Below are positions 15,810-61,866 of a stretch of DNA of 64,000 nucleotides, piece after piece; position 1 is the first letter of the stretch, and each line of letters begins with the position of its first letter. Below the pieces are notes generated by a model. The model saw only the letters and a program-made list of their open reading frames with translations, ran no database searches and had not been told where the DNA came from. The translations under genes and the position numbers were made by a program. Origin of the DNA: a virus; the IMG/VR virus record IMGVR_UViG_3300020472_000012, positions 1 through 64,000 of that record, one strand, 5' to 3'.

Positions 15810-18800
15810 ATGCCAACAAAAGCAAGATATCTTGCAGACTTATTAAATGCATCTGGGGAGTTAGACTCTACTGGTGCAGTTGAGAGTATTCAAGATAATA
15901 TATCAACACTATTCAGTGCTGGAACTCATACAGGTATATCATTTACCTATGATGATTCCAATGCAACATTCAGTGCAGCCGTTAATCAAGACGCAGTTGC
16001 AGCTGGATTTTATCACAAAATCGCAGTAACAGTTTCAAGTAGCAAGTATTACTTGGATGGAACACAACAAGCAACAGCGATACTGTCTCCCTCAGTATTG
16101 TATAGATTTGACTTGTCTGATTCATCTAACGCTAATCATCCTCTAAGATTCTCTACTACTTCTGATGGAACACATAACTCTGGTGCAGAAATATCAGCAG
16201 GGTATACAACATATTCTAAACAAGGAACGCCAGGTTCATCTGGTGCATACACAGAAGTATGTTTTGAACAAGACCAAACAAACCCACTTTATTACTATTG
16301 TTCTGCACATAGTGGTATGGGTGGTACTGCATTGTTAGGTATTATGCCTAACTCAGATTTTTTAACAGAAGGTTCAACTAACCTTTACTATACAGACGAG
16401 AAAGTTCAAGATGTGGTTGGTGCTCAAATAGCAACCAATGGTTCACATACTGGATTAACTGCCACCTATGATGATGCTGGTGATGGTGCAATAGATATAG
16501 CACTATCCAGTGAATATGTACAAGACTTAGTAGGTGCAATGGTATCATCTAATACTGAGAGCGGTATTAGTGTAACATACGAAGATGGAGATGGTACTTT
16601 AGACTTCAATGTTAATGACCCAACAATTACCCTTGCTGGTGATGTTACTGGTTCTGCAACAATGACAGATTTAGGTAATGTATCTATTACCACAACCATT
16701 GCAGCTGATAGTATTGCATTAGGAACAGACACAACTGGAAACTATGTACAAACAATAACTGGAACTACAAACGAAATAGAAATATCTGGTTCTGGTTCAG
16801 AAAGTGCAGATGTAACAATAGGTTTACCGAATGATGTAACGATTGGAAATGATTTAACAGTTACAGGAGACTTAACTGTCTCTGGAACTACAACTACTGT
16901 ATCGTCATCAACAGTTGCAATTGCAGATGTAAACATGAAGGTTGCAAAAGATAACGCTGCAAATGCAGTAGACTTTGGAATATATGGTGCATACAATGAT
17001 GGTTCTGGAAAATTTGCTGGACTTAACTGGGATGCATCTGAGTCAGATAAGTTTAGACTCTTTCATGGAACTGCAACAGAACCAACTACTGTAGTAAATA
17101 CTGGTGCAAGTGGTTGGACAAAAGGAACATTAATTGCAGACTTAGAAGGTAACGCTTCTACTGCAACTGCATTAGAAACTTCAAGAACACTTGCATTAGC
17201 AGGTGATGTTACTGGTTCTGCATCTTTTGATGGAAGTGGAAATGCAACAATAACTGCAACTATATCTGCTGACTCTGTTGCATTAGGAACAGACACAACA
17301 GGAAATTATGTTGCAGATGTCGCTGGTGGAACTGGTATTACAGTTACACATAGTGCTGGTGAAGCATCAACACCTAGTGTTGCAGCCGACCTTGCAACAA
17401 CAAGTGCAGTTGGTGTTGCATCATTTAACTCTACAGACTTTACAGTAACTTCTGGTAATGTTGAGTTGGTTGATGAAGCAATTCAAGATGTGGCAGGTGC
17501 TCAATTAGCAACTAATGGTTCACATACTGGTATCACTGCAACATATGATGATGCTGGTGATGGGGCAATTGACCTTGCACTAATAACAGAAAATGTAGAA
17601 GATATAACTGGTGCTCAATTAGCAACCAATGGTTCCCATACAGGAATAACTGCAACTTACGATGATGCTGGAGATGGTGCAATAGACCTTGCATTAGTAA
17701 CAGAGAATGTACAAGACATTGCTGGAGCTCAACTTGCAACTAATGGTTCACATACTGGTATCTCATTTACATATGATGATGCTGGTGATGGTGCTATAGA
17801 TGCAGTAGTAAGTGGTGCAGCTGCAACTATCATATCAGATTTTGGTGAAGCAGTTGCCGACACAGTAGGGGCAATGTTCAGTGGAAACACAGAAACAAAC
17901 ATAACAGCAACATATGTTGATGATGATAATACTATTGACTTAGCCGTTTCTGGTAATATGTCTAGTATCGTATCAGATTATCAAGAAGCAATCGAAGATG
18001 TTGTAGGTGCAATGGTAGGTTCTAATACCGAAAGTGGTATTGCTGTAACATACGATGACACAAATGGTAAGTTAGACTTTGATGTATCAGACCCAACGAT
18101 TACTCTTGCTGGAGATTTAGGTGGTTCTGCAACAATAACTAACTTAGGAAATGCAACCTTAACTGCAACAATACAAGCTGGTTCTGTAGAAAACAGTATG
18201 TTAGCAGGTTCAATTGCAAACAGTAATCTTGCAAATTCAACAATAACAGTTTCCGATGGTTCTAACACAACTGCAACTGCATTGGGTGGAACAATAACAT
18301 TTGCTGGTACTTCAAACGAAGTAGATGTTGCAGAGAGTTCTGGAACAATTACATATGGACTACCATCTGATGTAACAATATCAAACGACTTAACAGTTAG
18401 TGGAGACTTAACAGTTACAGGGTCAACAACTCAAACTGGTGCTGTAGTAACAGACAATAACTTTACAGGGTTAACAAATGCAAACTCTGGAAACTCAACA
18501 GACTTTGGTTTCTATGGTAAGTATGTAGAATCTTCAACCACAAAATATGCTGGTTTATTCTACGATGCATCAACTGATAATACATTCAGACTCTTTAGAG
18601 ATACAGAAACAGTACCTTCAACAACAGTAAATACTTCTGCATCTGGTTATGGTGTTGCAACTCTAGTTGCAAATATTACAGGTGATGTTAGTGGTTCATC
18701 TGGAAGTACAACAGGTAACGCTGCTACTGCAACAGCACTTGCAAGTGCAAGAACTATTAGTGGTGTAAGTTTTGATGGTACTGCAAACATAACTTTAGAT

Positions 18801-19760
18801 ACAGACGACATTGGTGAAGGTTCAAGTAACCTCTATCATACAAGTGAAAGAGTACAAGATGTTGCTGGTGCTCAATTAGCAACTAATGGTTCACATACTG
18901 GTGTTTCAGTTGCATATGACGATGCTGGAGATGGTGCAATTGATATAACAGTTGCAAACTCAGACTTTGCATTGACTGGTGATGTAACTGGTACTGTAAC
19001 ACAGACTGCAAAAGGTAATGTATCAATTGCAACTACGATTGCAGCTGACTCAGTTGCATTAGGAACTGATACTACTGGTAATTATGTTGCTGGAGTAAGT
19101 GGTGGAACTGGTGTTTCAGTTAGTGGTTCTGGTTCAGAGAATGCAACTGCAACAGTTTCAATTGGACAAGCAGTAGCAACAACTAGTGATGTAACCTTTG
19201 CAGATATAGCTGCAACTGGTGATGTAACAATTACTGGTGACTTAACAATAAATGGTACAACAACTACTGCATCATCTACTAACACTGTAATTGCAGATAG
19301 ATTAATAGAATTAGGAAATGGAACTACTGGAACTCCAGCCAATGATATGGGTATTGTTCTTGAAAGAGGTTCATCCGATAATGTGTTTATTGGTTGGGAC
19401 GAAAGTGCAGATGTAGTTACAGTAGGAACTGGTTCATTTACAGGTGCATCAACTGGTGACTTAACAATAACAGCAGCTGCTTTAACAGCTGGAGAGTTCA
19501 CTGGTACTGGTGGTACATTTGGTAATGTTCAAGTAGGTGTAACAGGAGATGGAGAGATTGATACAAGTTCTGGTAACTTAACAATCGATTCTGCTGGTGG
19601 TACAACTACAATAGATGATACTGTATCAATAAGTGGAGCTGCAACAACAGACTATACAACAATTGGAAGTAGTGCAAAATCATTCAGAAATGTGTTCATT
19701 CACGACTCTGCACCGAGTGGTTCAGATGGTGCTGTGGGTGACATCTGGGTAACCTACTAA
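15810..19760 (+). CDS. Long tail fibre-like protein
   Basis: 1316 aa, G/T/D/S/A-rich, several repeat families, C-terminal SAPSGSDGAVGDIWVTY. Confidence 0.85.
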   Translation: MPTKARYLADLLNASGELDSTGAVESIQDNISTLFSAGTHTGISFTYDDSNATFSAAVNQDAVAAGFYHKIAVTVSSSKYYLDGTQQATAILSPSVLYRFDLSDSSNANHPLRFSTTSDGTHNSGAEISAGYTTYSKQGTPGSSGAYTEVCFEQDQTNPLYYYCSAHSGMGGTALLGIMPNSDFLTEGSTNLYYTDEKVQDVVGAQIATNGSHTGLTATYDDAGDGAIDIALSSEYVQDLVGAMVSSNTESGISVTYEDGDGTLDFNVNDPTITLAGDVTGSATMTDLGNVSITTTIAADSIALGTDTTGNYVQTITGTTNEIEISGSGSESADVTIGLPNDVTIGNDLTVTGDLTVSGTTTTVSSSTVAIADVNMKVAKDNAANAVDFGIYGAYNDGSGKFAGLNWDASESDKFRLFHGTATEPTTVVNTGASGWTKGTLIADLEGNASTATALETSRTLALAGDVTGSASFDGSGNATITATISADSVALGTDTTGNYVADVAGGTGITVTHSAGEASTPSVAADLATTSAVGVASFNSTDFTVTSGNVELVDEAIQDVAGAQLATNGSHTGITATYDDAGDGAIDLALITENVEDITGAQLATNGSHTGITATYDDAGDGAIDLALVTENVQDIAGAQLATNGSHTGISFTYDDAGDGAIDAVVSGAAATIISDFGEAVADTVGAMFSGNTETNITATYVDDDNTIDLAVSGNMSSIVSDYQEAIEDVVGAMVGSNTESGIAVTYDDTNGKLDFDVSDPTITLAGDLGGSATITNLGNATLTATIQAGSVENSMLAGSIANSNLANSTITVSDGSNTTATALGGTITFAGTSNEVDVAESSGTITYGLPSDVTISNDLTVSGDLTVTGSTTQTGAVVTDNNFTGLTNANSGNSTDFGFYGKYVESSTTKYAGLFYDASTDNTFRLFRDTETVPSTTVNTSASGYGVATLVANITGDVSGSSGSTTGNAATATALASARTISGVSFDGTANITLDTDDIGEGSSNLYHTSERVQDVAGAQLATNGSHTGVSVAYDDAGDGAIDITVANSDFALTGDVTGTVTQTAKGNVSIATTIAADSVALGTDTTGNYVAGVSGGTGVSVSGSGSENATATVSIGQAVATTSDVTFADIAATGDVTITGDLTINGTTTTASSTNTVIADRLIELGNGTTGTPANDMGIVLERGSSDNVFIGWDESADVVTVGTGSFTGASTGDLTITAAALTAGEFTGTGGTFGNVQVGVTGDGEIDTSSGNLTIDSAGGTTTIDDTVSISGAATTDYTTIGSSAKSFRNVFIHDSAPSGSDGAVGDIWVTY
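17470..17810 (+). repeat. Three tandem 38-aa (114-nt) fibre repeats
   Basis: ExxxDxxGAQLATNGSHTGIxxTYDDAGDGAID x3; further copies near 16400 and 18850. Confidence 0.85.
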
Positions 19761-19798
19761 ATACAGTAGTAGATAATGAATAGGAGTGAAGTCAGATA

Positions 19799-21373
19799 AT
19801 GGCATCAAAGATAAAGACAGGCCCAACAACTTGGACAGATACCTATGGTATGAGGGTAAAGACGCCTGGTGGGTGGAATAAGGTAGTTGATGTTAAGAGG
19901 AAAACTCCTACTGGGTGGCAGTTTGTTACTGGTACAATACAGGTAACTCAACCTTATCAACAGACTTATCAACAACCATATCAGCAACCCTTTCAACAAC
20001 CTTATCAACAACCATATCAGCAACAGAATAGTAGACCTTCTACTTATGAAGTAACTATACCTCGACCTGCTAACTACGAACAGACTATACCTAGACCGAA
20101 TCAATACGAACAAACGATTCCTAGACCTGCTAACTACGAACAGACTATACCTAGACCTTCTAGTTATGAACAAACTATACCTAGACCTTCTAGTTATGAA
20201 CAAACTATACCTAGACCAAATAGTTACGAACAGACAATACCAAGACCTACTACCTATCAGACACAAGGTACTAGGCCTGCATTCTATCAGTCTCAAGGTA
20301 CTAGACCTGCTTCATATGAGCAGACGATACCAAGACCTGCTTCATATGAACAGACGATACCAAGACCTGCTAACTACGAACAAACAATTCCTAGACCAGC
20401 TTTTTATCAGACACAGGGTACACACTTTTATCAAACCCAACATTTGCATCACTTCTATCAGACACAAGGGTCTCACTTTTATCAGACACAGGGTACATCA
20501 TTTCACCAGCACCAAAATGCTGGGTTCCACCAAATACAGAACTCTAGACCAACTACTTATCAGATACAAAATGCAAGACCTACTTTCTATCAAACTCAGA
20601 TAGCTGGATTCTTCCAGCCTGGGCCAGGTTTTAAAAATGGTGGTGGTACATGGTATCCACCTTCACAGCATCAGAATGCAAGACCTACTTTCTATCAAAC
20701 ACAAGGTAGTAGACCAGCATTCTACCAGACACAAGGTACACACTTTTATCAGACACAGCATTTACATCACTTCTATCAGATTCAGAATCAAGGATTCCAT
20801 CAGATACAGAATGCATCATTTCACCAACACCAGAATGCTGGATTCCATCAAGTGCAAAATTCTAGACCTACTTCTTATGAGGTTACTATTCCAAGACCTA
20901 CTTCTTATGAGGTAACAATATCTAGGCCTACAAGTTATGAGGTAACTATACCAAGACCGACTACTTATCAGATACAAAATGCAAGACCTACAACTTATCA
21001 GATACAAAACTCTAGGCCATCTTCATACGAGGTTACAATATCTAGACCTACTTCTTATGAAGTGACTATACCTAGACCTACTTCTTATGAAGTAACAATA
21101 CCTAGACCAACAAGTTATGAGGTAACAATACCTAGACCAACAAGTTATGAGGTAACAATACCGAGACCTACATCATATGAGGTTACTATTCCAAGACCTA
21201 CTTCATATGAACAGACGATAAGTAGACCAACTACTTATCAAGTTACTGCACCTAGACCAGCAACTCGTCCAACAACGAGACCTGCTACTAGACCAAGTAC
21301 AAGACCATCAACAAGACCAGTCTCTACATGGGATGGAGACCTTGCTAAGCCTTGGGATGGTTCATCAGATTAA
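19799..21373 (+). CDS. Mirror-symmetric repeat protein, putative fibre-tip hairpin adhesin
   Basis: Trp/Lys N-terminal domain; 4-, 10- and 8/9-aa repeat blocks mirrored around GFFQPGPGFKNGGGTWYPP; AGGAG RBS. Confidence 0.75.
   Translation: MASKIKTGPTTWTDTYGMRVKTPGGWNKVVDVKRKTPTGWQFVTGTIQVTQPYQQTYQQPYQQPFQQPYQQPYQQQNSRPSTYEVTIPRPANYEQTIPRPNQYEQTIPRPANYEQTIPRPSSYEQTIPRPSSYEQTIPRPNSYEQTIPRPTTYQTQGTRPAFYQSQGTRPASYEQTIPRPASYEQTIPRPANYEQTIPRPAFYQTQGTHFYQTQHLHHFYQTQGSHFYQTQGTSFHQHQNAGFHQIQNSRPTTYQIQNARPTFYQTQIAGFFQPGPGFKNGGGTWYPPSQHQNARPTFYQTQGSRPAFYQTQGTHFYQTQHLHHFYQIQNQGFHQIQNASFHQHQNAGFHQVQNSRPTSYEVTIPRPTSYEVTISRPTSYEVTIPRPTTYQIQNARPTTYQIQNSRPSSYEVTISRPTSYEVTIPRPTSYEVTIPRPTSYEVTIPRPTSYEVTIPRPTSYEVTIPRPTSYEQTISRPTTYQVTAPRPATRPTTRPATRPSTRPSTRPVSTWDGDLAKPWDGSSD
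19948..21325 (+). repeat. Coding tandem repeats (12-, 30- and 24/27-nt units)
   Basis: RPxxY(E/Q)xxxx decamers with synonymous third-position variation. Confidence 0.9.
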
Positions 21374-21426
21374 TGATTTGAAAGGGTAACTATATACCCT
21401 TATAAACTTTATATTATGGAGAAATT

Positions 21427-22062
21427 ATGTTATTAGTATATGACGACAACAATACTCTTCACCTAAGAAATGAAAGAGGACTACGATGGAGTTATGAGAG
21501 AACAGACCGACCAGAGTTGGGGTTCGATTTTGACTACCTATTCTATAACCCACCAGAAGATGAATTCTATGAACTCAATGGTGAGGCACAACCCTTAAGT
21601 CAAGAACAACTTGACCAAGTAAAAGAGTATATCTCTTTATCAGAACCGCCTGATGTAATCACCTTACAAGACCAACATATAGGTGATTTAAAAGACCATA
21701 TCAATCAACAACTAGATGGAATCCTAGATGATTTAGGATATCATGGTTGGGTTGAAGTAATGTTAGTTGGTAGAGAGGGTTCACAAGACCCATATCGTGC
21801 AGAATCAAGACGAGTTCTTGAGTTTAGAGACTGGATATTTCAGACTTTTTATAGACTTGAAGAAGAAATTCGTTTAACTGTAGATGCAGATTTACTATCT
21901 TTGGATGCTTATATCCAGAAATTACCAACTATTCCAAGAGCAGAATGGTTCTCTAGAGGGGATAGACCTATTGCAGAAAGACTTAAACTTCTTGCAGATA
22001 GTGACACTTTAGATGTAAATGAAGGTGAGTCAGCACTAGGGGAAGATAAGAGAGCAGTCTAA
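21427..22062 (+). CDS. Tail fibre assembly/chaperone-like protein
   Basis: LDDLGY...DPYRAESRRVLEFRDWIF resembles the GYD...F.AEA....WRD.VW pattern of fibre assembly proteins; position after the fibre genes. Confidence 0.55.
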   Translation: MLLVYDDNNTLHLRNERGLRWSYERTDRPELGFDFDYLFYNPPEDEFYELNGEAQPLSQEQLDQVKEYISLSEPPDVITLQDQHIGDLKDHINQQLDGILDDLGYHGWVEVMLVGREGSQDPYRAESRRVLEFRDWIFQTFYRLEEEIRLTVDADLLSLDAYIQKLPTIPRAEWFSRGDRPIAERLKLLADSDTLDVNEGESALGEDKRAV

Positions 22063-22907
22063 TGTCCGATAGAGATTTATTCTCTTGGATAGACGAACCT
22101 CTTAAAATAGTTCACCTAGAGAAATCACAACCATTAAAACAACTTCCACATAAAGAATGTTGGATAATTGATAATTGGTTACCAGATTCCATCTTCCAAT
22201 CTTGGATAGATTGGAGAAGTCAATCAGTCAATTGGGGATTATCTAATAGAGTAATAAGGGATGGAGAGAAACAACACCTATATTGGGGTGAGTCTTTCTA
22301 TACTTCTTTACGAGAAATTAAAGCTTATCATGGTGGAGATAAGTTAAGAATTCAACCTTTATCAAAAAGAAGATGGAGTAATGTCTCTCCAGATTGGAGA
22401 AAAACAGTCATTAATACTAATGAATCTGGATATTGTCATCCACTTGTTGATAATATTATATGGAGATTGCAACAAGAATTTAGATTTGACTGGGTTAGAT
22501 TTCAATATTGTGGAATGAATGGACAGATAACTGGACAGGATGGAACACTTCATGAGGACACTCATAAGGGTGAGGATGGTATTAATAACCTAACATTTCT
22601 CTTTTATGACCAACCTTACTGGGAAGATGACTGGGGTGGTGATTTAATCTTCTATGATAGTAGGTGTCATGATGAACAATTTGGTAAAGGTATATTAGAA
22701 AACGAAGAAGAATATGAGATTGGTCGTGTTCAATATAAACCTAATAGACTAGTTGTGGTTAATGGAATGATTACACACAGACATCCAGGCCCAACTGCAC
22801 CATATGAGAAACCACATTTTCCTTTTAGAACTTCTTTAGTTTGTCGTGGGGATGAAATAAAGTTGTGGGACAAAGGAGTATATAAACATAAAGAATATGA
22901 ATACTAA
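22062..22907 (+). CDS. 2OG-Fe(II) oxygenase (prolyl-hydroxylase-like)
   Basis: HED...WEDDWGGDLIF...PNRLVV...ITHR...RTS. Confidence 0.85.
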   Translation: MSDRDLFSWIDEPLKIVHLEKSQPLKQLPHKECWIIDNWLPDSIFQSWIDWRSQSVNWGLSNRVIRDGEKQHLYWGESFYTSLREIKAYHGGDKLRIQPLSKRRWSNVSPDWRKTVINTNESGYCHPLVDNIIWRLQQEFRFDWVRFQYCGMNGQITGQDGTLHEDTHKGEDGINNLTFLFYDQPYWEDDWGGDLIFYDSRCHDEQFGKGILENEEEYEIGRVQYKPNRLVVVNGMITHRHPGPTAPYEKPHFPFRTSLVCRGDEIKLWDKGVYKHKEYEY

Positions 22908-23685
22908 AATAATTTTAATAATGGGATTGCCAGGCTCTGGTAAAACCACTCTTGCAAAACATCTATTAGACTACATTGATGCAGAACATTATGAAGCAGA
23001 TGTTATTAGACAGATAGAAAACGACTGGGACTTCTCCGAAGAAGGGAGAATGAGACAAGTATATCGAATGAGAGAACTTGCACAAACAACTAAAAGACCA
23101 TATGCAATATGTGATTTTGTTTGTCCTTTAGTAGAAGGTAGAGAAATTTTACAACCAGATATAGTTATCTGGATGAATACTATTGAGAAAGGAAGGTTTG
23201 AAGACACCAATCAAGTGTTTGTAGAACCAGAAAAAGTCGATTATCTGGTTACAGATTACAATGCAGAACTACATTCAGAGGTCATTTCTAGAACAATTCT
23301 AGAAACTTCTGCAATTTCTTTTGACCCTAAACTACCAACTACACAGATGTTGGGCAGATATCAACCATTTCATGATGGTCATCTTGCATTATTTGAGAGG
23401 TGTCATGAACAAACTGGTCAAGTAGTTATCATGGTAAGGGATATGCCAGCAGATATAAAGAACCCTTTTGACTTTAAAACCATTAAACAAAACATTAAAT
23501 TATATCTTCTAGGGGAAGGATACGAAGAAAATCATGATTATGTTATCATCAAAGTACCTAATATTGTAGATATTAGTTATGGTAGAGATGTAGGATATAG
23601 TATAACCGAACATAAATTTGATAAAGATGTAGAGGAAATTAGTGCAACAGAGATAAGGAGACAGATTGGCATCAAGGAAAATTAG
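22897..23685 (+). CDS. APS-kinase-like P-loop domain fused to an HxGH nucleotidyltransferase
   Basis: GLPGSGKTT, ADVIR...DFSEEGR, DFVCP; then GRYQPFHDGH and ISATEIR. Confidence 0.8.
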   Translation: MNTKIILIMGLPGSGKTTLAKHLLDYIDAEHYEADVIRQIENDWDFSEEGRMRQVYRMRELAQTTKRPYAICDFVCPLVEGREILQPDIVIWMNTIEKGRFEDTNQVFVEPEKVDYLVTDYNAELHSEVISRTILETSAISFDPKLPTTQMLGRYQPFHDGHLALFERCHEQTGQVVIMVRDMPADIKNPFDFKTIKQNIKLYLLGEGYEENHDYVIIKVPNIVDISYGRDVGYSITEHKFDKDVEEISATEIRRQIGIKEN

Positions 23686-23911
23686 TCTTATAAAGAGTGT
23701 CAGTTATAGAGTTTTAGCAATTTCTATCACTGGTCTTACTGGTTACTTCGTAACTGGGAGTCTAATTTTTGCAGCCACGATAGTCTACATAGATACTTTA
23801 TTGAAGATAGTATTCTATTATTGGCATGAAAGAGTATGGGAAAGAATACAAAAGAAGATGAAAAAGAATAAAGATTGGAGAATTGGAACAGTATGGGAAA
23901 AGAGGAAGTAG
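23666..23911 (+). CDS. DUF2061-like small membrane protein
   Basis: SLIKSVSYR...KIVFYYWHERVW; TTG start with AAGGAG. Confidence 0.8.
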   Translation: MASRKISLIKSVSYRVLAISITGLTGYFVTGSLIFAATIVYIDTLLKIVFYYWHERVWERIQKKMKKNKDWRIGTVWEKRK

Positions 23912-24936
23912 GTAAATGTCCTATAGACCACTCTAAACCAAAGAAGTCTATAAGAGCATCTGGAACATTTGATAGGAGTGAGACTCATACTATCAAGTTT
24001 ACTACGCCTTGGGATGATGCATTTGATGTATTCCAACCAGTTCCGATGTCCGAAGCACAACCAGATTGGTGGAATAAACTATCAATATATGTCCATGATG
24101 ACAAGTTTACTAAACAACAAACTGGTAAAGGATGTCCATCTATGCATGATATTATGAATACTGGGTACATTATTAGAACCCACAAGACTATATTAGTTGT
24201 TCAAATACCAGATTGTGAAGACAAAGAAGAACCATATAGTGACCCAGAGTTTCAATGTACTTGGTGTGATGAGACATGTGACCCAGAATCAGAAGTAGGA
24301 AAGAGACATAGAAGGTTACACAACCACGACCAAGGCGGTACTGCATATGTAATTAAAGATGAATATGTAGAAGATATGACTCAATATATGAGAGAATGTA
24401 TCGAAAATGATGTAGGTAGAAGAGATATGTATTTCGATTTACTCAATGAAGAACATCAATCAAACAAATGGATTGACTGGAGATATGAAATAACAGGTGG
24501 TCACAATGGCGGTCAACTGTTAGGTTCAGATTTTGACCATAGGTTGTCTATAAAATTCAGACAGCCTTGGACAATTTCTACTCCAGAAGGTACATCGTGT
24601 TATTGGTTAGACCCATTTCTAAAGATGAATGACAACTGGACAGCAATGCAAGGTGTCATTGATACTGATGGGTTTAACCAAATTGATACGAATTGTATAA
24701 CAATTATACATCCATTAACTAATGAAAACTTTATTATACCGAAAGGAACACCAATTGTCCAGATAGTTCCCTTTGTTAGAACTAAGTGGAAACACGAATT
24801 GGAATTAAATATGGACATAAAACAAGACTTCATGCATACACCAGAGATGAAAGAGTTGGGAGAAAAGGGTGAGAGTGGTGATGGTAAAAAGAATGTTTAC
24901 AGAAAAAACTTCTGGGAAGTAAAGGAGTTTAAGTAA
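23893..24936 (+). CDS. DUF6065-like protein (dUTPase-like beta-clip C-terminus)
   Basis: QPDWW, GCPSMHD...GY, PW.I.TPEG.S, GVIDTD, IPKGTPIVQIVPF; alternative TTG start at 23875. Confidence 0.65.
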   Translation: MGKEEVGKCPIDHSKPKKSIRASGTFDRSETHTIKFTTPWDDAFDVFQPVPMSEAQPDWWNKLSIYVHDDKFTKQQTGKGCPSMHDIMNTGYIIRTHKTILVVQIPDCEDKEEPYSDPEFQCTWCDETCDPESEVGKRHRRLHNHDQGGTAYVIKDEYVEDMTQYMRECIENDVGRRDMYFDLLNEEHQSNKWIDWRYEITGGHNGGQLLGSDFDHRLSIKFRQPWTISTPEGTSCYWLDPFLKMNDNWTAMQGVIDTDGFNQIDTNCITIIHPLTNENFIIPKGTPIVQIVPFVRTKWKHELELNMDIKQDFMHTPEMKELGEKGESGDGKKNVYRKNFWEVKEFK

Positions 24937-25676
24937 TGTTACATCAATTATTTCCAACTAATGTATTCACTTTTAACATGATAGGGGATGACCCATACTA
25001 TCAGATGTCAGAAAAGAACTGGGATAAGTTAATTAAAGAGTCTTATACCATGAGAAAGAAAGACCCAGTAGGAAGATTTAGGTCAAATGATGAGAGTGGA
25101 TGGCAGTCTAACGATGGTGTAGAGAACAATGCAGTCTTCCAACCCATGCTTAATAGAATGAATAGGTTCTTTGACAAGGAAGTATTTCCTTTCTATGGTG
25201 CAACTGATAACGAATTAAAACTACAACATGGTAATTATTGGGTTAATATAAATGGATTAGGTGGTCATAATCATGCACATACACATCCAGGCTGTTGGTA
25301 TTCTGGAGTAATATACCTACAAGTACCTAAAGGAATGGATAGAGGTGGACTACAAATCATAGACCAGAACATAAAACACATGTCTCAGTTCCCTTTAATG
25401 TCTAACAGAAGTGATATGTGGTGGAGAGTTCAACCAGAAAAAGGATTATTAATATTATTTCCTTCTGGAATATATCATTTCGTAGAACCTAACGATGCAG
25501 ATGGAGATAGAATTTCTATTGCATTTAATAATTCTTTTGTTGATAGACAAGTTATTGCAAACCATTACGATGAACTTCCTTATGGAATGGTTAACACACA
25601 TCCAGAACAAACACCAAAAAGATATGATGATAGTATAGTAGTGCAACCAGATGGCACTTTAGAATTCCCTAAATAG
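24936..25676 (+). CDS. 2OG-Fe(II) oxygenase, TIGR02466-like
   Basis: GWQS; WVNIN...HTHPGCWYSGVIY; LILFPS.IYH.V.PN; RISIAFN. Confidence 0.88.
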   Translation: MLHQLFPTNVFTFNMIGDDPYYQMSEKNWDKLIKESYTMRKKDPVGRFRSNDESGWQSNDGVENNAVFQPMLNRMNRFFDKEVFPFYGATDNELKLQHGNYWVNINGLGGHNHAHTHPGCWYSGVIYLQVPKGMDRGGLQIIDQNIKHMSQFPLMSNRSDMWWRVQPEKGLLILFPSGIYHFVEPNDADGDRISIAFNNSFVDRQVIANHYDELPYGMVNTHPEQTPKRYDDSIVVQPDGTLEFPK

Positions 25677-25699: not shown

Positions 25700-25951
25700 A
25701 TGGACAACGAAATGACACACTTAATCTGGAACTTTGTATTGACTGCCGGAGCAGCGGGAGTTGGTTGGTGGGTCATTAATATGCACAACGAATTGAAACG
25801 AGTAGAGATTTTGTTGAACAGGACTAGGGAAGAAGTAGCGAGAGACTACATTCAGAAAGATGATTTGGAAAGAGCAATGAGACCAATTGTAGAATCCATA
25901 GAGAAAATTGACTCTAAATTAGACGATTTTCTAATCTCAAATCAAAAATAA
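25700..25951 (+). CDS. Small membrane-anchored coiled-coil protein (possibly holin-like)
   Basis: N-terminal TM segment, LNRTREEVARDY, coiled coil. Confidence 0.55.
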   Translation: MDNEMTHLIWNFVLTAGAAGVGWWVINMHNELKRVEILLNRTREEVARDYIQKDDLERAMRPIVESIEKIDSKLDDFLISNQK

Positions 25952-25999
25952 CCTAAATACTGTTAGAACAAAATTTTTAATTCTAATGGAAAATAGGTT

Positions 26000-26815
26000 A
26001 TGGCATCACCAAACAGTAAATCAACACTAAAAGAATATGCATTAAGACAACTGGGGAAACCAGTTATAGAGGTTAATGTTGATGACGACCAAGTAGATGA
26101 CATCATAGATGATTGTCTACAGTATTATAAAGAGTACCATTATGATGGTACAATGAGAACATATCTCAAACATCAAATTAATTCTACTGATTTAACAAAC
26201 CAAAGACTAGATGCATCAATGACGCAGTCATCAACTGGGTCACACATATCAAGTACAATGTCCTTTAAAGAGGGACAAGGATATGTGGTTATGCCAGAAT
26301 CAGTTATGTCTGTTCTTAGAATCTTTCCATTCACCGATAAATCTGGACTCAATATGTTTGATATGAGATATCAGTTAAGGTTACATGACCTTTATGACTT
26401 ATCTTCTACATCTATATTGCAGTATGAGATGGTACAGAACCATGTCCAGTTACTAGATGAACTATTAGTTGGTGAGGTTCCAGTAAGATATAACAAAGTA
26501 CAGAATAGATTATATCTTGATTTGGATTGGACAAATGCAGTTGCAAACACAGACTGGATTATTATAGATTGCTATCGTGCAATTGACCCAACTACATTTA
26601 CAGATGTTTACAATGACATATGGTTAAAGAGATATGTCACTGCAAAGATTAAAGGTCAGTGGGGAAGGAACATGTCTAAGTTTGAAGGTATTCAATTGCC
26701 AGGCGGAGTTACACTAAACACTCGACAAATGATAGAAGATTCAAACGAGGAAATAACTAGATTAGAAGAAGAGAGTAACTTACAACAGACTGAATCTGCT
26801 ATTATGTTGGGGTAA
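26000..26815 (+). CDS. gp13: Neck protein gp13
   Basis: LRQLGKPVIEVNVDDDQ; WLKRYVTA..K.QWG.N.SKF.G.QLPGGV. Confidence 0.93.
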   Translation: MASPNSKSTLKEYALRQLGKPVIEVNVDDDQVDDIIDDCLQYYKEYHYDGTMRTYLKHQINSTDLTNQRLDASMTQSSTGSHISSTMSFKEGQGYVVMPESVMSVLRIFPFTDKSGLNMFDMRYQLRLHDLYDLSSTSILQYEMVQNHVQLLDELLVGEVPVRYNKVQNRLYLDLDWTNAVANTDWIIIDCYRAIDPTTFTDVYNDIWLKRYVTAKIKGQWGRNMSKFEGIQLPGGVTLNTRQMIEDSNEEITRLEEESNLQQTESAIMLG

Positions 26816-44186: not shown

Positions 44187-44741
44187 ATGGCACAAAAAGC
44201 AAAACCAGAACACTATGTAAATAACAAAGAGTTCACAGCAGCGATTACAGAACATAACCTTGCAGTTAGGAAAGCAGTCAAAGATGGAAAGGAACCACCT
44301 AGAGTTTCCGAGTATATTGGTGAGTGCATTTATAAAATTGCAACAAGGTTATCGACTAAACCAAATTTTATCAACTATTCTTATAGGGATGAAATGATTT
44401 GTGATGGAATTGAAAACTGTTTACAATATATAAACAACTTCAACCCAGAGAAATCTCAAAATGCGTTCGCATATATCACACAAATTATTTACTATGCATT
44501 CCTAAGAAGAATCCAGAAAGAAAAGAAACAGTCTGCAATTAAACAGAAGGCAATTATGAATTCTGGAATATTAACAGACATGGTAGACACTATGGATGGT
44601 GACACCAATCAGTATTCAAATTCGTATGTTGAGTTTTTACAAGACAATATGAATGAAATAACCTATAAACCTAGAGGTAAAAAGAAAAAAACCCAATCTA
44701 ATAAAGGCGTTGAAAACTTTTATCAGTCCACAAAAAAATAA
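44187..44741 (+). CDS. gp55: Late sigma factor gp55
   Basis: HYVNNKEF; YIGEC..KIA; MICDGIENC; FAYITQI.YYAFLRRIQKEK. Confidence 0.96.
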   Translation: MAQKAKPEHYVNNKEFTAAITEHNLAVRKAVKDGKEPPRVSEYIGECIYKIATRLSTKPNFINYSYRDEMICDGIENCLQYINNFNPEKSQNAFAYITQIIYYAFLRRIQKEKKQSAIKQKAIMNSGILTDMVDTMDGDTNQYSNSYVEFLQDNMNEITYKPRGKKKKTQSNKGVENFYQSTKK

Positions 44742-46035: not shown

Positions 46036-47731
46036 TGTAAAGTACAAAAACTTTCTTTCCACAGGCAACAAATTTACAGAAGTTTTTCTAGACAAAAGAA
46101 AAGCCTGTCTAGTTGTGGGTGAGAATGGAAGTGGTAAATCTACAATGTTAGATGCATTATGCTTTGGACTATTTGGAAAAGGATTTAGAAAAGTTTCAAA
46201 AAACATGTTAGTTAATACTATTAATGGTAGGCACATGGTAGTTGAGATTGAATTCTCAGTTGGACAGAAGAGATACAAAGTTGTTCGTGGTGCAAAACCA
46301 AATATCTTTGAAGTGTATCTACATGGTAAGTTACTTAATCAAGATGCAAACATGAGAGACTATCAAGAGTATCTCGAAAAACAAATTCTAAAATTAAACT
46401 ACAAGGCATTTACTCAAGTAGTAATACTTGGTAGTTCAACCTTTACACCTTTCATGCAAATGGGTACTAATGATAGACGAGGTATTATTGAGGATATACT
46501 TGATATCAACATATTCTCTATTATGAATGATATCTTAAAGATTAGACAAGGTGCAATGAAGACTGAGTTACAAGAGATTGAATATGATATTAAATTATCA
46601 CAAGATAGAATTGATACATACAAAGGTCATATTAAAGCATTAGGTGAAAATCGTAGACAAAAGGTTGCAGACTTTAGAGATAGTATTGCAAATTCTGAAT
46701 CCCATGTAGAAGACCTACAAGTAGAAATAGATTCTTTTTTACAAGAAGTAGAAGATAATCTAAACCCTAAGATAAAAGATTTTGAAAAGTTAAAAGATAG
46801 ACTACAACATACAGTAGAAATTGAAAGGAAACTACACGATGCATTTACTAAAGGTGAGGAACAACTAGACTTTTATGAGCATACAAAGACTTGTCCCACA
46901 TGTAAACATGACTTGGAAGACGACTTCAAGGAAAAGAAACTCGAAGAGATTGCAGGCACGAACACAGAAATCACGAGGGGAATCAAAGAACTCGAACAGA
47001 AGGTTGCATCACTCGAAAAACAACTCGAAGATATCCAAGAGGTGCAAGAACAAATCAATGATATCAACAGAAAGGTATCTAAGAAACAGAATGAGATTAG
47101 TGCATCGCAACAATATATCACGAAAATCAACAAAGAGATTGATAAACTTGTATCAGAAAAACAGTCTGATGATTCCAAGAAGTTGGGAATAGAAACAAAA
47201 GCTTTAAAGAAACACGACACTAGAAAAGAAGAACTTGTAGATAAGAGACATTATTATGACCTTGCAGCTTTCTTATTGAAGGATAGTGGTATTAAGACCA
47301 AAATTGTTAAACAATATCTTCCAGTAATGAATAAGTTGATTAATAAATATCTTGCTTCAATGGACTTCTTTGTTCAGTTTGAGTTAGATGAGAACTTTAA
47401 TGAGAATATAAAGTCTAGATATAGAGACGATTTTTCTTATGCAAACTTTAGTGAAGGGGAGAAAATGAGAATTGACCTTGCATTGTTATTCACTTGGAGA
47501 GCAATTGCAAAGTTAAAGAATAGTGTGAATACAAACCTATTGATGTTAGATGAAGTCTTTGACAGTTCACTGGATGAGGGTGGTACTGATGAGTTCATGA
47601 AAATACTAACAACATTAGGAAACGATACCAATGTCTTTATTATTTCACACAAAGGGGACATTCTAAATGAGAAGTTTAGACATGTCATGAAATTTGAGAA
47701 GGTTAAAAACTTTAGTAGGATAGCAGAATAA
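46019..47731 (+). CDS. gp46: Recombination ATPase gp46 (SbcC/Rad50-like)
   Basis: GENGSGKS; CPTC hook; FSEGEK; LDEVFD; ISH. Confidence 0.96.
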   Translation: MIRFHSVKYKNFLSTGNKFTEVFLDKRKACLVVGENGSGKSTMLDALCFGLFGKGFRKVSKNMLVNTINGRHMVVEIEFSVGQKRYKVVRGAKPNIFEVYLHGKLLNQDANMRDYQEYLEKQILKLNYKAFTQVVILGSSTFTPFMQMGTNDRRGIIEDILDINIFSIMNDILKIRQGAMKTELQEIEYDIKLSQDRIDTYKGHIKALGENRRQKVADFRDSIANSESHVEDLQVEIDSFLQEVEDNLNPKIKDFEKLKDRLQHTVEIERKLHDAFTKGEEQLDFYEHTKTCPTCKHDLEDDFKEKKLEEIAGTNTEITRGIKELEQKVASLEKQLEDIQEVQEQINDINRKVSKKQNEISASQQYITKINKEIDKLVSEKQSDDSKKLGIETKALKKHDTRKEELVDKRHYYDLAAFLLKDSGIKTKIVKQYLPVMNKLINKYLASMDFFVQFELDENFNENIKSRYRDDFSYANFSEGEKMRIDLALLFTWRAIAKLKNSVNTNLLMLDEVFDSSLDEGGTDEFMKILTTLGNDTNVFIISHKGDILNEKFRHVMKFEKVKNFSRIAE

Positions 47732-61102: not shown

Positions 61103-61866
61103 TGGAACAACCAACACTATCAAAAGATTTATTTAGAATCAAACTCAATGTTGGGTTAGACTATAGATTTATTGCTGATTGGTGTATAGAACATGAACAT
61201 CATCCATACTTCTCACATGATGAAGATGGGGTTGCAACACCAAATCAATTTAGTGATAATCTAAGGTCATATGTTAGAGGTTCCAAAGAAGGTATAGATT
61301 TTGGTGAAGATGGTGTAGCAGATTTAGAAGAGAAGACTAAAGACATAGAATATTATCATACCTATAATCCATTTTCATTTGGATTAAGACCATTTGCAGA
61401 TTTATACTGGAAGTTAAATGAGTTCTTCTATTCAGACCCACAAGTTAACGAGGCTGGTGAACCATATTACATTCATGGATGGTTTAATGTATATACAAAG
61501 AAAGATGAAGACAATAAAGGGTATGACCACATCCCTTGGCACAAACATATGGAAGTTTATCATCCACATATCTATCATGGATTTTATTGTGCAAATGTAC
61601 AACCTTCTCAAACTTGGTACAGAGAGGGCCCAGAATCTACAGAGGAATCGTGGTTAAAACATACAGACTATGATGATATGATAATATATTCACCATCATC
61701 ATTTGAACATGCATCAACGCCATGGCTTGAAGACAAACCTAGAGTGACGATTGCATTTGACATTATTCCAGAGAGTGTTTATCTCTCAGAACATAATATT
61801 GGTAACTATCAATGGGGATTAGAACCAAGACAATATCAATCAATACCATTTCCTAAATGCATATGA
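61102..61866 (+). CDS. 2OG-Fe(II) oxygenase-like protein (HxH type; paralogue of 30585-31220)
   Basis: HGWFNV; WHKH; YHG; EH; PRVTIAFDIIP; IPF. Confidence 0.75.
   Translation: MEQPTLSKDLFRIKLNVGLDYRFIADWCIEHEHHPYFSHDEDGVATPNQFSDNLRSYVRGSKEGIDFGEDGVADLEEKTKDIEYYHTYNPFSFGLRPFADLYWKLNEFFYSDPQVNEAGEPYYIHGWFNVYTKKDEDNKGYDHIPWHKHMEVYHPHIYHGFYCANVQPSQTWYREGPESTEESWLKHTDYDDMIIYSPSSFEHASTPWLEDKPRVTIAFDIIPESVYLSEHNIGNYQWGLEPRQYQSIPFPKCI

Follow-up and report, generated by a model that had tools for sequence, protein, structure and literature searches.

Mycobacteriophage virions are glycosylated by phage-encoded glycosyltransferases, and in Dictyostelium and Toxoplasma a hydroxyproline of Skp1 is glycosylated in a pathway that begins with the prolyl hydroxylase PhyA and proceeds through glycosyltransferases, including the GT8 glycogenin-like enzyme Gat1. 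The closest precedent for the locus analyzed here appears to be the prolyl 4-hydroxylase (P4H) of chlorovirus PBCV-1, which acts on the virus's own Pro-rich repeats according to the passage of PMC9301287 that cites Eriksson et al. (1999). The role of the viral P4H "remains cryptic" (PMC9301287), and the 2-oxoglutarate- and Fe(II)-dependent (2OG-Fe(II)) oxygenases of phages have been filed as potential auxiliary metabolic genes (AMGs) (PMC11561400). The subject of this work is a gene block at positions 19799-25676 of a 64-kb stretch of viral DNA (the window, i.e., the first 64 kb of the IMG/VR record IMGVR_UViG_3300020472_000012), in which the gene for a Pro/Tyr-rich tandem-repeat protein is followed by genes for two such oxygenases and other candidate enzymes. 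Our best single reading, to which we give a probability of about 40%, is that the block would be a conserved, late-transcribed module for appendage maturation (fibre tailoring) in a large clade of uncultured marine T4-like myoviruses. Since the repeat protein stays locked beside the same enzyme set in a putative late operon, the enzymes may chemically decorate a virion appendage.

Results

The block is conserved in a large clade of T4-like phages

The host record of the window is 114 kb long and 63% complete. It derives from an uncultured marine T4-like myovirus, with baseplate and fibre proteins, homologues of gp13 to gp20 and a gp55-like late sigma factor. Its TerL is 58% identical to that of the nearest named phage, C48C1 (Kyanoviridae), and no counterpart of the block was found between the fibre genes of C48C1 and its gp13. 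Against cultured phages, megablast of the block region gave no match, and tblastn of the repeat protein and of ORF211 gave low-complexity matches or nothing. At least 15 metagenome runs from marine plankton contain near-identical DNA.

All eight ORFs exist as described in the first-pass annotation of the window, and the block lies, as stated there, between the fibre genes and gp13. Upstream lies the gene for a fibre-like structural protein of 1316 aa (15810-19760), which has PHROG tail-fibre and minor-tail matches and a conserved C-terminal end, GDGAVGDIWVTY, and which precedes the repeat gene in every related locus. The block is followed by orf83 and gp13 (phrog_211; 26000-26815), the latter preceded by a late-type motif at 25953. 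The genes and motifs of the block and its flanks are all on the + strand.

Related IMG/VR loci were fetched with three independent handles: the alignment of the DUF6065-like protein (40 loci), the N-terminal domain of the repeat protein (80 of 86 kept) and the ORF211 alignment (80 of 288 kept). Every locus that covers the region (∼150) has the same gene order, namely fibre, one to three Pro/Tyr-rich repeat ORFs, ORF211, a PHD-like oxygenase, a dUTPase-fold protein, a TIGR02466 oxygenase, orf83 and gp13. All genes of the block are under purifying selection (dN/dS 0.08-0.22). Additional enzymes at the locus are lineage-specific. A tree of gp13 plus gp14 from 77 distinct loci revealed three monophyletic states: the window's clade carries a kinase/nucleotidyltransferase fusion paired with a DUF2061 protein, and no glycosyltransferase; a small clade has neither; and in the largest clade a protein of ∼520 aa with a GT8-like C-terminal domain is encoded between the repeat genes and ORF211. 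The locus thus appears to gain and lose enzymes as a tailoring locus would.

A scan of genome contigs recovered just the same phage block, in metagenome-assembled genomes (MAGs) of five phyla, and no cellular homologue. The contigs that carry it (L219-L223) were binned as Flavobacteriales, Sphingobacteriales, Verrucomicrobiales, Synechococcus and Rhodobacterales. Mis-binning is the probable cause, and hence the MAG labels give no host.

The repeat protein

The repeat gene (19799-21373) codes for a protein of 524 aa. Its N-terminal domain has three (V)KTPxGW motifs, and its C-terminal motif is WDGDxxKPW; the protein also contains QQP[YF] repeats, a (TRPx)n stretch and 10-residue repeats that form two mirrored halves. 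The 10-residue units read RPxxY[EQ]xTI[PNS] or RPxxYQxQ[GN], and Tandem Repeats Finder detected periods of 30/60 nt in the gene. The regular spacing of Pro and Tyr claimed by the first-pass annotation is borne out: there are 36 RP dipeptides at exact 10-residue spacing and 40 Y[E/Q], together with 18 PRP, in a protein with 67 Pro, 42 Tyr, 17 His and no Cys. The N-terminal domain has a mean identity of 87% within the clade, and the dN/dS of the protein relative to its homologue in locus L006 is 0.17. Across lineages the repeat units differ completely (RPxxYEVTIP in the window; HRSPFTYQ, NAQTPYIA, RPATGTYPAQ or FQQPYGYQQNY elsewhere). The proteins, which are rich in Pro, Tyr, Thr, Gln and Arg, evolve fast; throughout, they remain Pro/Tyr-rich and retain the N-terminal domain with its three KTPxGW motifs as well as WDGxxxW at the C-terminal end. 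The sole "homologue" found in the protein database (P0001) was rejected as a chimeric short contig.

In the window the KTPxGW domain and the WDGxxxW end are on one chain, and many sister lineages (such as L105, L117, L126 and L164) split them onto two consecutive repeat ORFs. The two mirrored halves might be separate interacting arms, which fits the split ORFs of the sister lineages. A Hint/intein-like autoprocessing domain (Cys ... TxxHP ... HN) was recognized at the end of the first repeat ORF of some sister lineages, as in L131:8989-11091 and also in L123, L126, L127, L130, L137, L139 and L145. Its scores (Pfam Intein_splicing, E 2e-7; Hint, E 2e-4) suggest self-cleavage or ligation at the C-terminus of the repeat protein in those lineages. 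An insertion of ∼650 nt between the repeat gene and ORF211 was observed in L017 (1950-2615) and L018, and it encodes a host-like, outer-membrane beta-barrel-like protein with a signal peptide.

A putative late transcription unit

The first-pass annotation had pointed to a late-type CTAAATA at about 19757. The motif is present at 19757-19763, 36 nt before the ATG of the repeat gene. The CTAAATA heptamer as such is not enriched in the window (10 seen, 16 expected), but at least 13 late genes there are preceded, at a distance of 10-135 nt, by a motif of the xxTAAATA class. T4-type late units have a TATAAATA-like -10 element and depend on a gp55-type sigma factor. The motif upstream of the repeat gene and its recurrence before late genes are consistent with such a unit, as is the gp55-like sigma factor encoded at 44187-44741 (phrog_234, E 2e-59). 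No late motif in promoter position was seen between 19757 and 25669, and the next one (25669-25675), which precedes orf83, ends the unit. The genes from the one at 21427 onward overlap one another, as had been noted, by 1, 11, 20, 37 and 1 nt at the successive junctions starting at 22062. Because the genes overlap, CTAAATA precedes the repeat gene and no internal motif in promoter position is found, it is reasonable, if unproven, to regard the repeat gene and the six genes after it as one late unit.

Between the repeat gene and ORF211 lies a stem-loop (21382-21401) with a 7-bp stem and a CTATATA loop (-10.7 kcal/mol; z -1.9, which is weak alone). Its position is kept in relatives of the clade, and L006 carries a compensatory G-C to A-T change. 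It is possible that this is an attenuator or an mRNA-stability element. In metatranscriptome X19, contigs with at least 99% identity fall inside ORF211, the fusion gene and the dUTPase-fold gene, and the junction between the fibre and repeat genes is bridged in three RNA-labelled runs. The contigs of these RNA libraries are scattered pieces, from which transcript starts or levels are not readable, and because DNA carry-over is possible they are a weak hint that the block is expressed.

Two 2OG-Fe(II) oxygenases

The gene at 22062-22907 encodes a predicted 2OG-Fe(II) oxygenase with a PHD/P4H-like fold. All 13 sequences compared, which come from three clades, have H164-x-D166, H239 and R256, and the iron/2OG site is intact. 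With an iron triad, a basic residue and a match to the double-stranded beta-helix fold (Z 10-13), the protein has the features of the 2OG-Fe(II) oxygenase superfamily. When the predicted model (pLDDT 70, pTM 0.78) was compared with known structures by VIA-align, the top four were PHD2 (Z 13.1), a Dictyostelium PHD (12.4), a Trichoplax PHD (12.0) and the P. putida EF-Tu prolyl hydroxylase (11.8). The profile of the family gave no match among PDB sequences, including none to a solved P4H. The label "P4H-like" given in the first-pass annotation is weaker than stated there: in Pfam, PF13640 scored 25.8 bits with a cut-off of 27, and the prolyl hydroxylases head the VIA-align list by a narrow margin. 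We keep the label as a lean, not as a finding. The oxygenase ORF is longer, at 414 aa, in L173, L178 and L191.

The second enzyme, encoded at 24936-25676, is solidly assigned by its profile scores to TIGR02466 (98.4 bits in NCBIfam, cut-off 62.5) and to 2OG-FeII_Oxy_5 (PF13759; 80.1 bits in Pfam, cut-off 27). Its PDB relatives, 2rg4 and 3bvc, are both uncharacterised. Further 2OG-oxygenase-like ORFs occur in the same genome (one between gp17 and gp18, another at G000 86103-86399, and weak ones at 61639 and 63887), so that oxygenases among structural genes are not special to the block.

These two enzymes could be ordinary auxiliary oxygenases of marine phages that manipulate host metabolism and are unrelated to virion structure. 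The TIGR02466/phrog_81 family is very common in cyanophages and pelagiphages, the genome holds several oxygenase paralogues, and phage 2OG oxygenases are treated as potential AMGs in the literature (PMC11561400, PMC9301287). However, both genes have a position in the putative late operon, with overlaps to ORF211 and to the dUTPase-fold gene, and within the clade the oxygenases never occur apart from repeat genes. AMGs are usually early or middle genes of variable position. We consider a role in host metabolism improbable.

A core protein with a dUTPase-type fold

The gene at 23875-24936 (phrog_7084; the likely true start is the ATG at 23893) had been labelled DUF6065-like, a label that proved weaker than stated. 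The window protein itself has no Pfam match, and only one of 14 relatives matches the family, at E 0.006. With a model of moderate quality (pLDDT 62), the top Foldseek matches were all dUTPases (E 6e-4 to 4e-2), and 21 of the 23 top rows of VIA-align were dUTPases, Dcd or herpesvirus dUTPase-related proteins (Z 7.4-4.7). Two independent structure aligners thus place the predicted model in the dUTPase/dCTP-deaminase fold. The invariant residues of the family resemble dUTPase motifs I-IV (CPxMxD, TPxGxS, GxxDxD and GTPxxQ), and the Gly-rich C-terminal motif V is absent from the alignment. Because motif V is missing, the protein is not a canonical dUTPase. A haloarchaeal virus encodes a homologue that stands alone, adjoining ribonucleotide reductase. 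A marginal match of the family profile to a phage particle protein (E 0.023) was not borne out by the fold searches. Residues ∼116-152 (∼24220-24330) form a Cys/His-rich, zinc-finger-like insertion (CxWCxxxC ... HxxxHxH), which is found in the window and its closest relatives and is missing in distant members. In L106 (6102-6740) and its relatives L177, L186, L190 and L219, an extra ORF of ∼212 aa with no known family lies between the dUTPase-fold gene and the TIGR02466 gene.

A cassette that modifies DNA or the dNTP pool before packaging, by base hydroxylation, phosphorylation or nucleotide hydrolysis, would account for the dUTPase fold, for a weak Ploopntkinase3 match (E 0.006) and for the AlkB and TET homologues found at Z 10-11.4 in the fold list of the oxygenase. 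It would sit poorly with the lack of motif V, with the presumed late control and the distance from replication genes, and with the lack of any TET/JBP- or AlkB-specific sequence match and of any glycosylase or transferase typical of hypermodification clusters. Such an activity is very improbable.

The GT8-like gene of the sister clade

A GT8-like gene occupies exactly the junction of repeat genes and core in 80 loci. Pfam PF01501 was matched in 6 of 14 members (best E 1.7e-5; 24.4 in L131, with a cut-off of 24.3), the DxD motif is invariant, and the top named Atlas clusters are all GT8 (0.86). The profile gave no match among PDB sequences. Residues 1-300 of these ORFs (e.g., L131:12636-14183) form a further conserved domain with invariant YH..K.HW and HPGSxR, for which no Pfam or PDB match was found.

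The kinase/nucleotidyltransferase fusion and DUF2061

The clade-specific accessory genes of the window overlap both of their neighbours. The first (22897-23685; phrog_10255 over its full length) encodes an APS-kinase-like P-loop kinase (GLPGSGKT) fused to an HxGH/ISxTxxR nucleotidyltransferase (FHDGH, ISATEIR). The kinase half scored 27.8 bits with Pfam APS_kinase (cut-off 21.1), over residues 4-84 only, and the best PDB match of the protein is APS kinase 2yvu (E 9e-7). The transferase half scored 28.4 bits with CTP_transf_like (cut-off 21), likewise over a partial stretch, and FHDGH and ISATEIR are invariant in alignment A9. The equivalog models were far from reached: TIGR00455 (apsK) gave 21.4 bits with a cut-off of 138.7, and the NMNAT models scored far below their cut-offs. 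The second gene (23666-23911) encodes a small membrane protein, solidly assigned to DUF2061 by its Pfam score (59.2 bits, cut-off 23.1). No fused forms of DUF2061 were found in our search, which is weak evidence, and publications on this family were uninformative.

The first-pass annotation had the cassette decorate the filament by hydroxylation and then by sulfation, phosphorylation or nucleotidylation. Among related loci the kinase/transferase-DUF2061 pair is confined to the window's subclade; two of the three clades lack it, and L007/L009 have lost the kinase half of the fusion. At least 461 relatives of the fusion were found, in viral contigs of great diversity (GC 29-53%). Their genomic context was read in 80 loci (L224-L303), and the repeat protein, ORF211, the PHD-like oxygenase and the DUF6065-like gene are missing from all of these. 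In ∼19 of the 80, DUF2061 lies directly 3′ of the fusion gene in unrelated phages. Recurrent neighbours were sulfotransferases (7; Pfam 49 bits), IscA-like proteins (10), NifU (6) and NodU-type carbamoyltransferases (4), which hints at a widespread phage module for sulfur or an activated donor. In phages of Xylella, Stenotrophomonas and Xanthomonas, the fusion gene is in early, nucleotide-metabolism regions. Because the pair is clade-restricted and mobile in at least 461 other viral contigs, there is no evidence for any of the three modifications of the filament, and this part of the first-pass proposal is unsupported.

These data bear on a separate possibility, that the fusion and DUF2061 are a self-contained mobile module in the block by chance, making an activated small molecule as a compact PAPS (3′-phosphoadenosine 5′-phosphosulfate) synthase or as a NadR-, CoA-synthase- or HldE-like enzyme, and feeding sulfur or cofactor metabolism or a sulfotransferase encoded elsewhere. 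The absence of the pair from two clades, its recurrence without the core, its early regions and its sulfur-type neighbours favour a mobile, self-contained donor or cofactor module, possibly for PAPS supply, rather than a protein kinase or AMPylase of the filament. Against chance residence in the block, the pair is fixed in the window's clade (65 loci), in the overlapping arrangement described above. The specific enzymes fit imperfectly, given the apsK and NMNAT scores and a transferase domain much smaller than ATP sulfurylase, and a scan of the 114-kb, 63%-complete record with hidden Markov models gave no sulfotransferase match. A "sulfotransferase-like" ORF at 47731 had no Pfam or PHROG match and no similarity to a genuine phage sulfotransferase. 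On balance we consider the mobile-module explanation of the pair fairly probable.

ORF211 and orf83

ORF211 (21427-22062), the first gene of the constant core, has the conserved motif REGSxxPxRxxxRR and no Pfam, PHROG or NCBIfam match. At least 288 relatives were found in IMG/VR, always directly 5′ of the oxygenase gene. It shows a weak language-model likeness to tail-fibre-assembly clusters (0.84-0.88). At the other end of the block, orf83 (25700-25951) has its own late-type motif and encodes an N-terminal transmembrane helix followed by a coiled coil. Its place between the enzyme core and gp13 is invariable, and it is extremely conserved (96% identity to L006, dN/dS 0.012).

Discussion

In the appendage-maturation reading, the core would be co-transcribed with the repeat gene from a promoter at 19757, at a lower level beyond the stem-loop, and would act on the repeat protein. 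The PHD-like oxygenase would hydroxylate Pro, or another residue, in the RPxxY repeats, and a lineage-specific decoration might follow, which could be glycosylation where the GT8-like protein is present. The kinase/transferase and DUF2061 would at most play an accessory part by supplying an activated donor, possibly PAPS, and would not themselves modify protein. From the first-pass proposal that the cassette decorates the filament, we therefore retain the part that agrees with the conserved adjacency, the intact oxygenase site and the GT8-like protein of the sister clade, but not the later sulfation, phosphorylation or nucleotidylation. We put forward only tentatively the more far-reaching version, in which these phages would encode a multi-enzyme post-translational pathway for their own repeat appendage, with hydroxylation of Pro or other residues followed by glycosylation in the GT8 clade or by a different chemistry in that of the window. 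In its organisation such a pathway would resemble an evolvable biosynthetic cluster.

Several observations speak against a role of the core in tailoring the appendage. The first-pass annotation had proposed to ask whether the cassette travels with homologues of the repeat protein, which it called a hairpin protein. It does so universally, in ∼150 loci, but this co-occurrence is vertically inherited synteny within one large clade. Because it is a single inherited arrangement, with which gp13 and gp14 co-travel equally well, and because each accessory state arose once in the gp13 plus gp14 tree, the test is passed without providing independent evidence. The presence of the repeat protein in the virion is inferred. 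Its relatives often have Phe in place of Tyr, and N, S or G in place of the second Pro of TIPRP. The window's clade has no transferase able to attach anything to a hydroxylated residue. Among the core and accessory proteins, the dUTPase-fold proteins and HxGH transferases are nucleotide enzymes for which we know of no role in protein modification. Another phrog_81 oxygenase of the same genome (30585-31220, E 2e-10) lies between gp17 and gp18 with no nearby substrate gene, and is present in some relatives only. Finally, the prolyl hydroxylases lead the VIA-align list by less than 2 Z units, with the small-molecule oxygenase WelO5 and ALKBH3 as runners-up at Z 11.4, and Foldseek, which does not discriminate here, places the small-molecule enzymes FtmOx1 and PrhA first. 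It is because of these close neighbours and the Foldseek ranking that P4H-like remains a lean only.

Much of the same evidence would be expected if the core enzymes act late in infection on a non-protein target, such as nucleotides, nucleotide sugars or the glycans and lipopolysaccharide (LPS) of the host envelope, and if their adjacency to the repeat gene is synteny inherited at a tolerated insertion site in the late structural region. The dUTPase/dCTP-deaminase fold with conserved equivalents of motifs I-IV, the solitary haloarchaeal homologue beside ribonucleotide reductase, the Foldseek ranking and the oxygenases scattered among structural genes of the genome all agree with such a target. 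GT8 also includes LPS glycosyltransferases, and the 2OG oxygenases LpxO and KdoO modify LPS. This explanation accounts less well for a gene order and translational coupling that are strictly kept in at least 150 loci while accessory neighbours come and go, for the putative late promoter shared with the repeat gene, and for the prolyl hydroxylases at the head of the VIA-align list. We regard a non-protein target as rather unlikely.

Among the unexplained genes of marine phages, those for 2OG-Fe(II) oxygenases and prolyl hydroxylases are some of the most abundant. The block offers a concrete and testable alternative, with a defined candidate substrate, a 10-residue repeat, four small enzymes and hundreds of environmental phage genomes. 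If the multi-enzyme pathway is real, the abundant 2OG-Fe(II) oxygenases of marine phages would gain a structural rather than a metabolic role, and host-recognition structures of phages would bear enzymatic decorations that are invisible to sequence-based host-range prediction. Should the repeat protein be unmodified, the dUTPase-fold protein and the widespread kinase/transferase-DUF2061 module would still indicate an undescribed late nucleotide or sulfur pathway.

Comparison with known systems

Bifunctional enzymes that combine a kinase with an HxGH nucleotidyltransferase include PAPS synthase, NadR, CoA synthase and HldE. Like these, the fusion of the window joins a P-loop kinase to an HxGH/ISxTxxR transferase, but the order and sizes of the domains differ, and the scores remain below those of the equivalog models. 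At the level of the whole locus, clusters for ribosomally synthesized and post-translationally modified peptides (RiPPs) offer an analogy only. They share with the block a precursor whose N-terminal part is conserved and whose repeated core is hypervariable, encoded beside tailoring enzymes whose complement varies between lineages. The precursor here, however, would be 250-770 aa long, and conservation at the N-terminus is just as typical of domains for fibre attachment. General Pfam, PHROG and NCBIfam scans of the block, with no dedicated search made, gave no RiPP recognition element (RRE), protease or leader-removal gene.

Among viruses that modify their own structural proteins with their own enzymes, as the block may do, are the mycobacteriophages, with virion glycosylation, and Mimivirus, with collagen hydroxylation and glycosylation (Mimivirus L230); both differ from the block in enzymes and chemistry. 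Our literature search gave no report of a bacteriophage virion protein that is modified by an oxygenase. A PHD-like hydroxylase combined with a GT8-like protein, next to a protein rich in Pro, Tyr and Thr, is reminiscent of the glycosylation of hydroxyproline and of Tyr glycosylation of the glycogenin type. The Skp1 pathway resembles the sister clade in pairing a PHD-type hydroxylase with a GT8-like glycosyltransferase, and the Dictyostelium PHD is the second-best structural neighbour of our oxygenase model (Z 12.4). In contrast, the window's clade is without a glycosyltransferase, the candidate substrate is a long tandem repeat and not a single Pro, and the dUTPase-fold and TIGR02466 partners have no counterpart in that pathway.

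PBCV-1 comes closest to the block, in that it has a viral 2OG-Fe(II) oxygenase with a P4H fold, vCPH (PDB 5c5t; Z 11.0 in our fold list), and a genome that also encodes Pro-rich tandem repeats. Its host, however, is a eukaryotic alga, and its enzyme and substrate genes are not in one operon. In the block, the predicted oxygenase is fixed in a putative late operon of a bacteriophage, beside the repeat gene and together with three more conserved partners.

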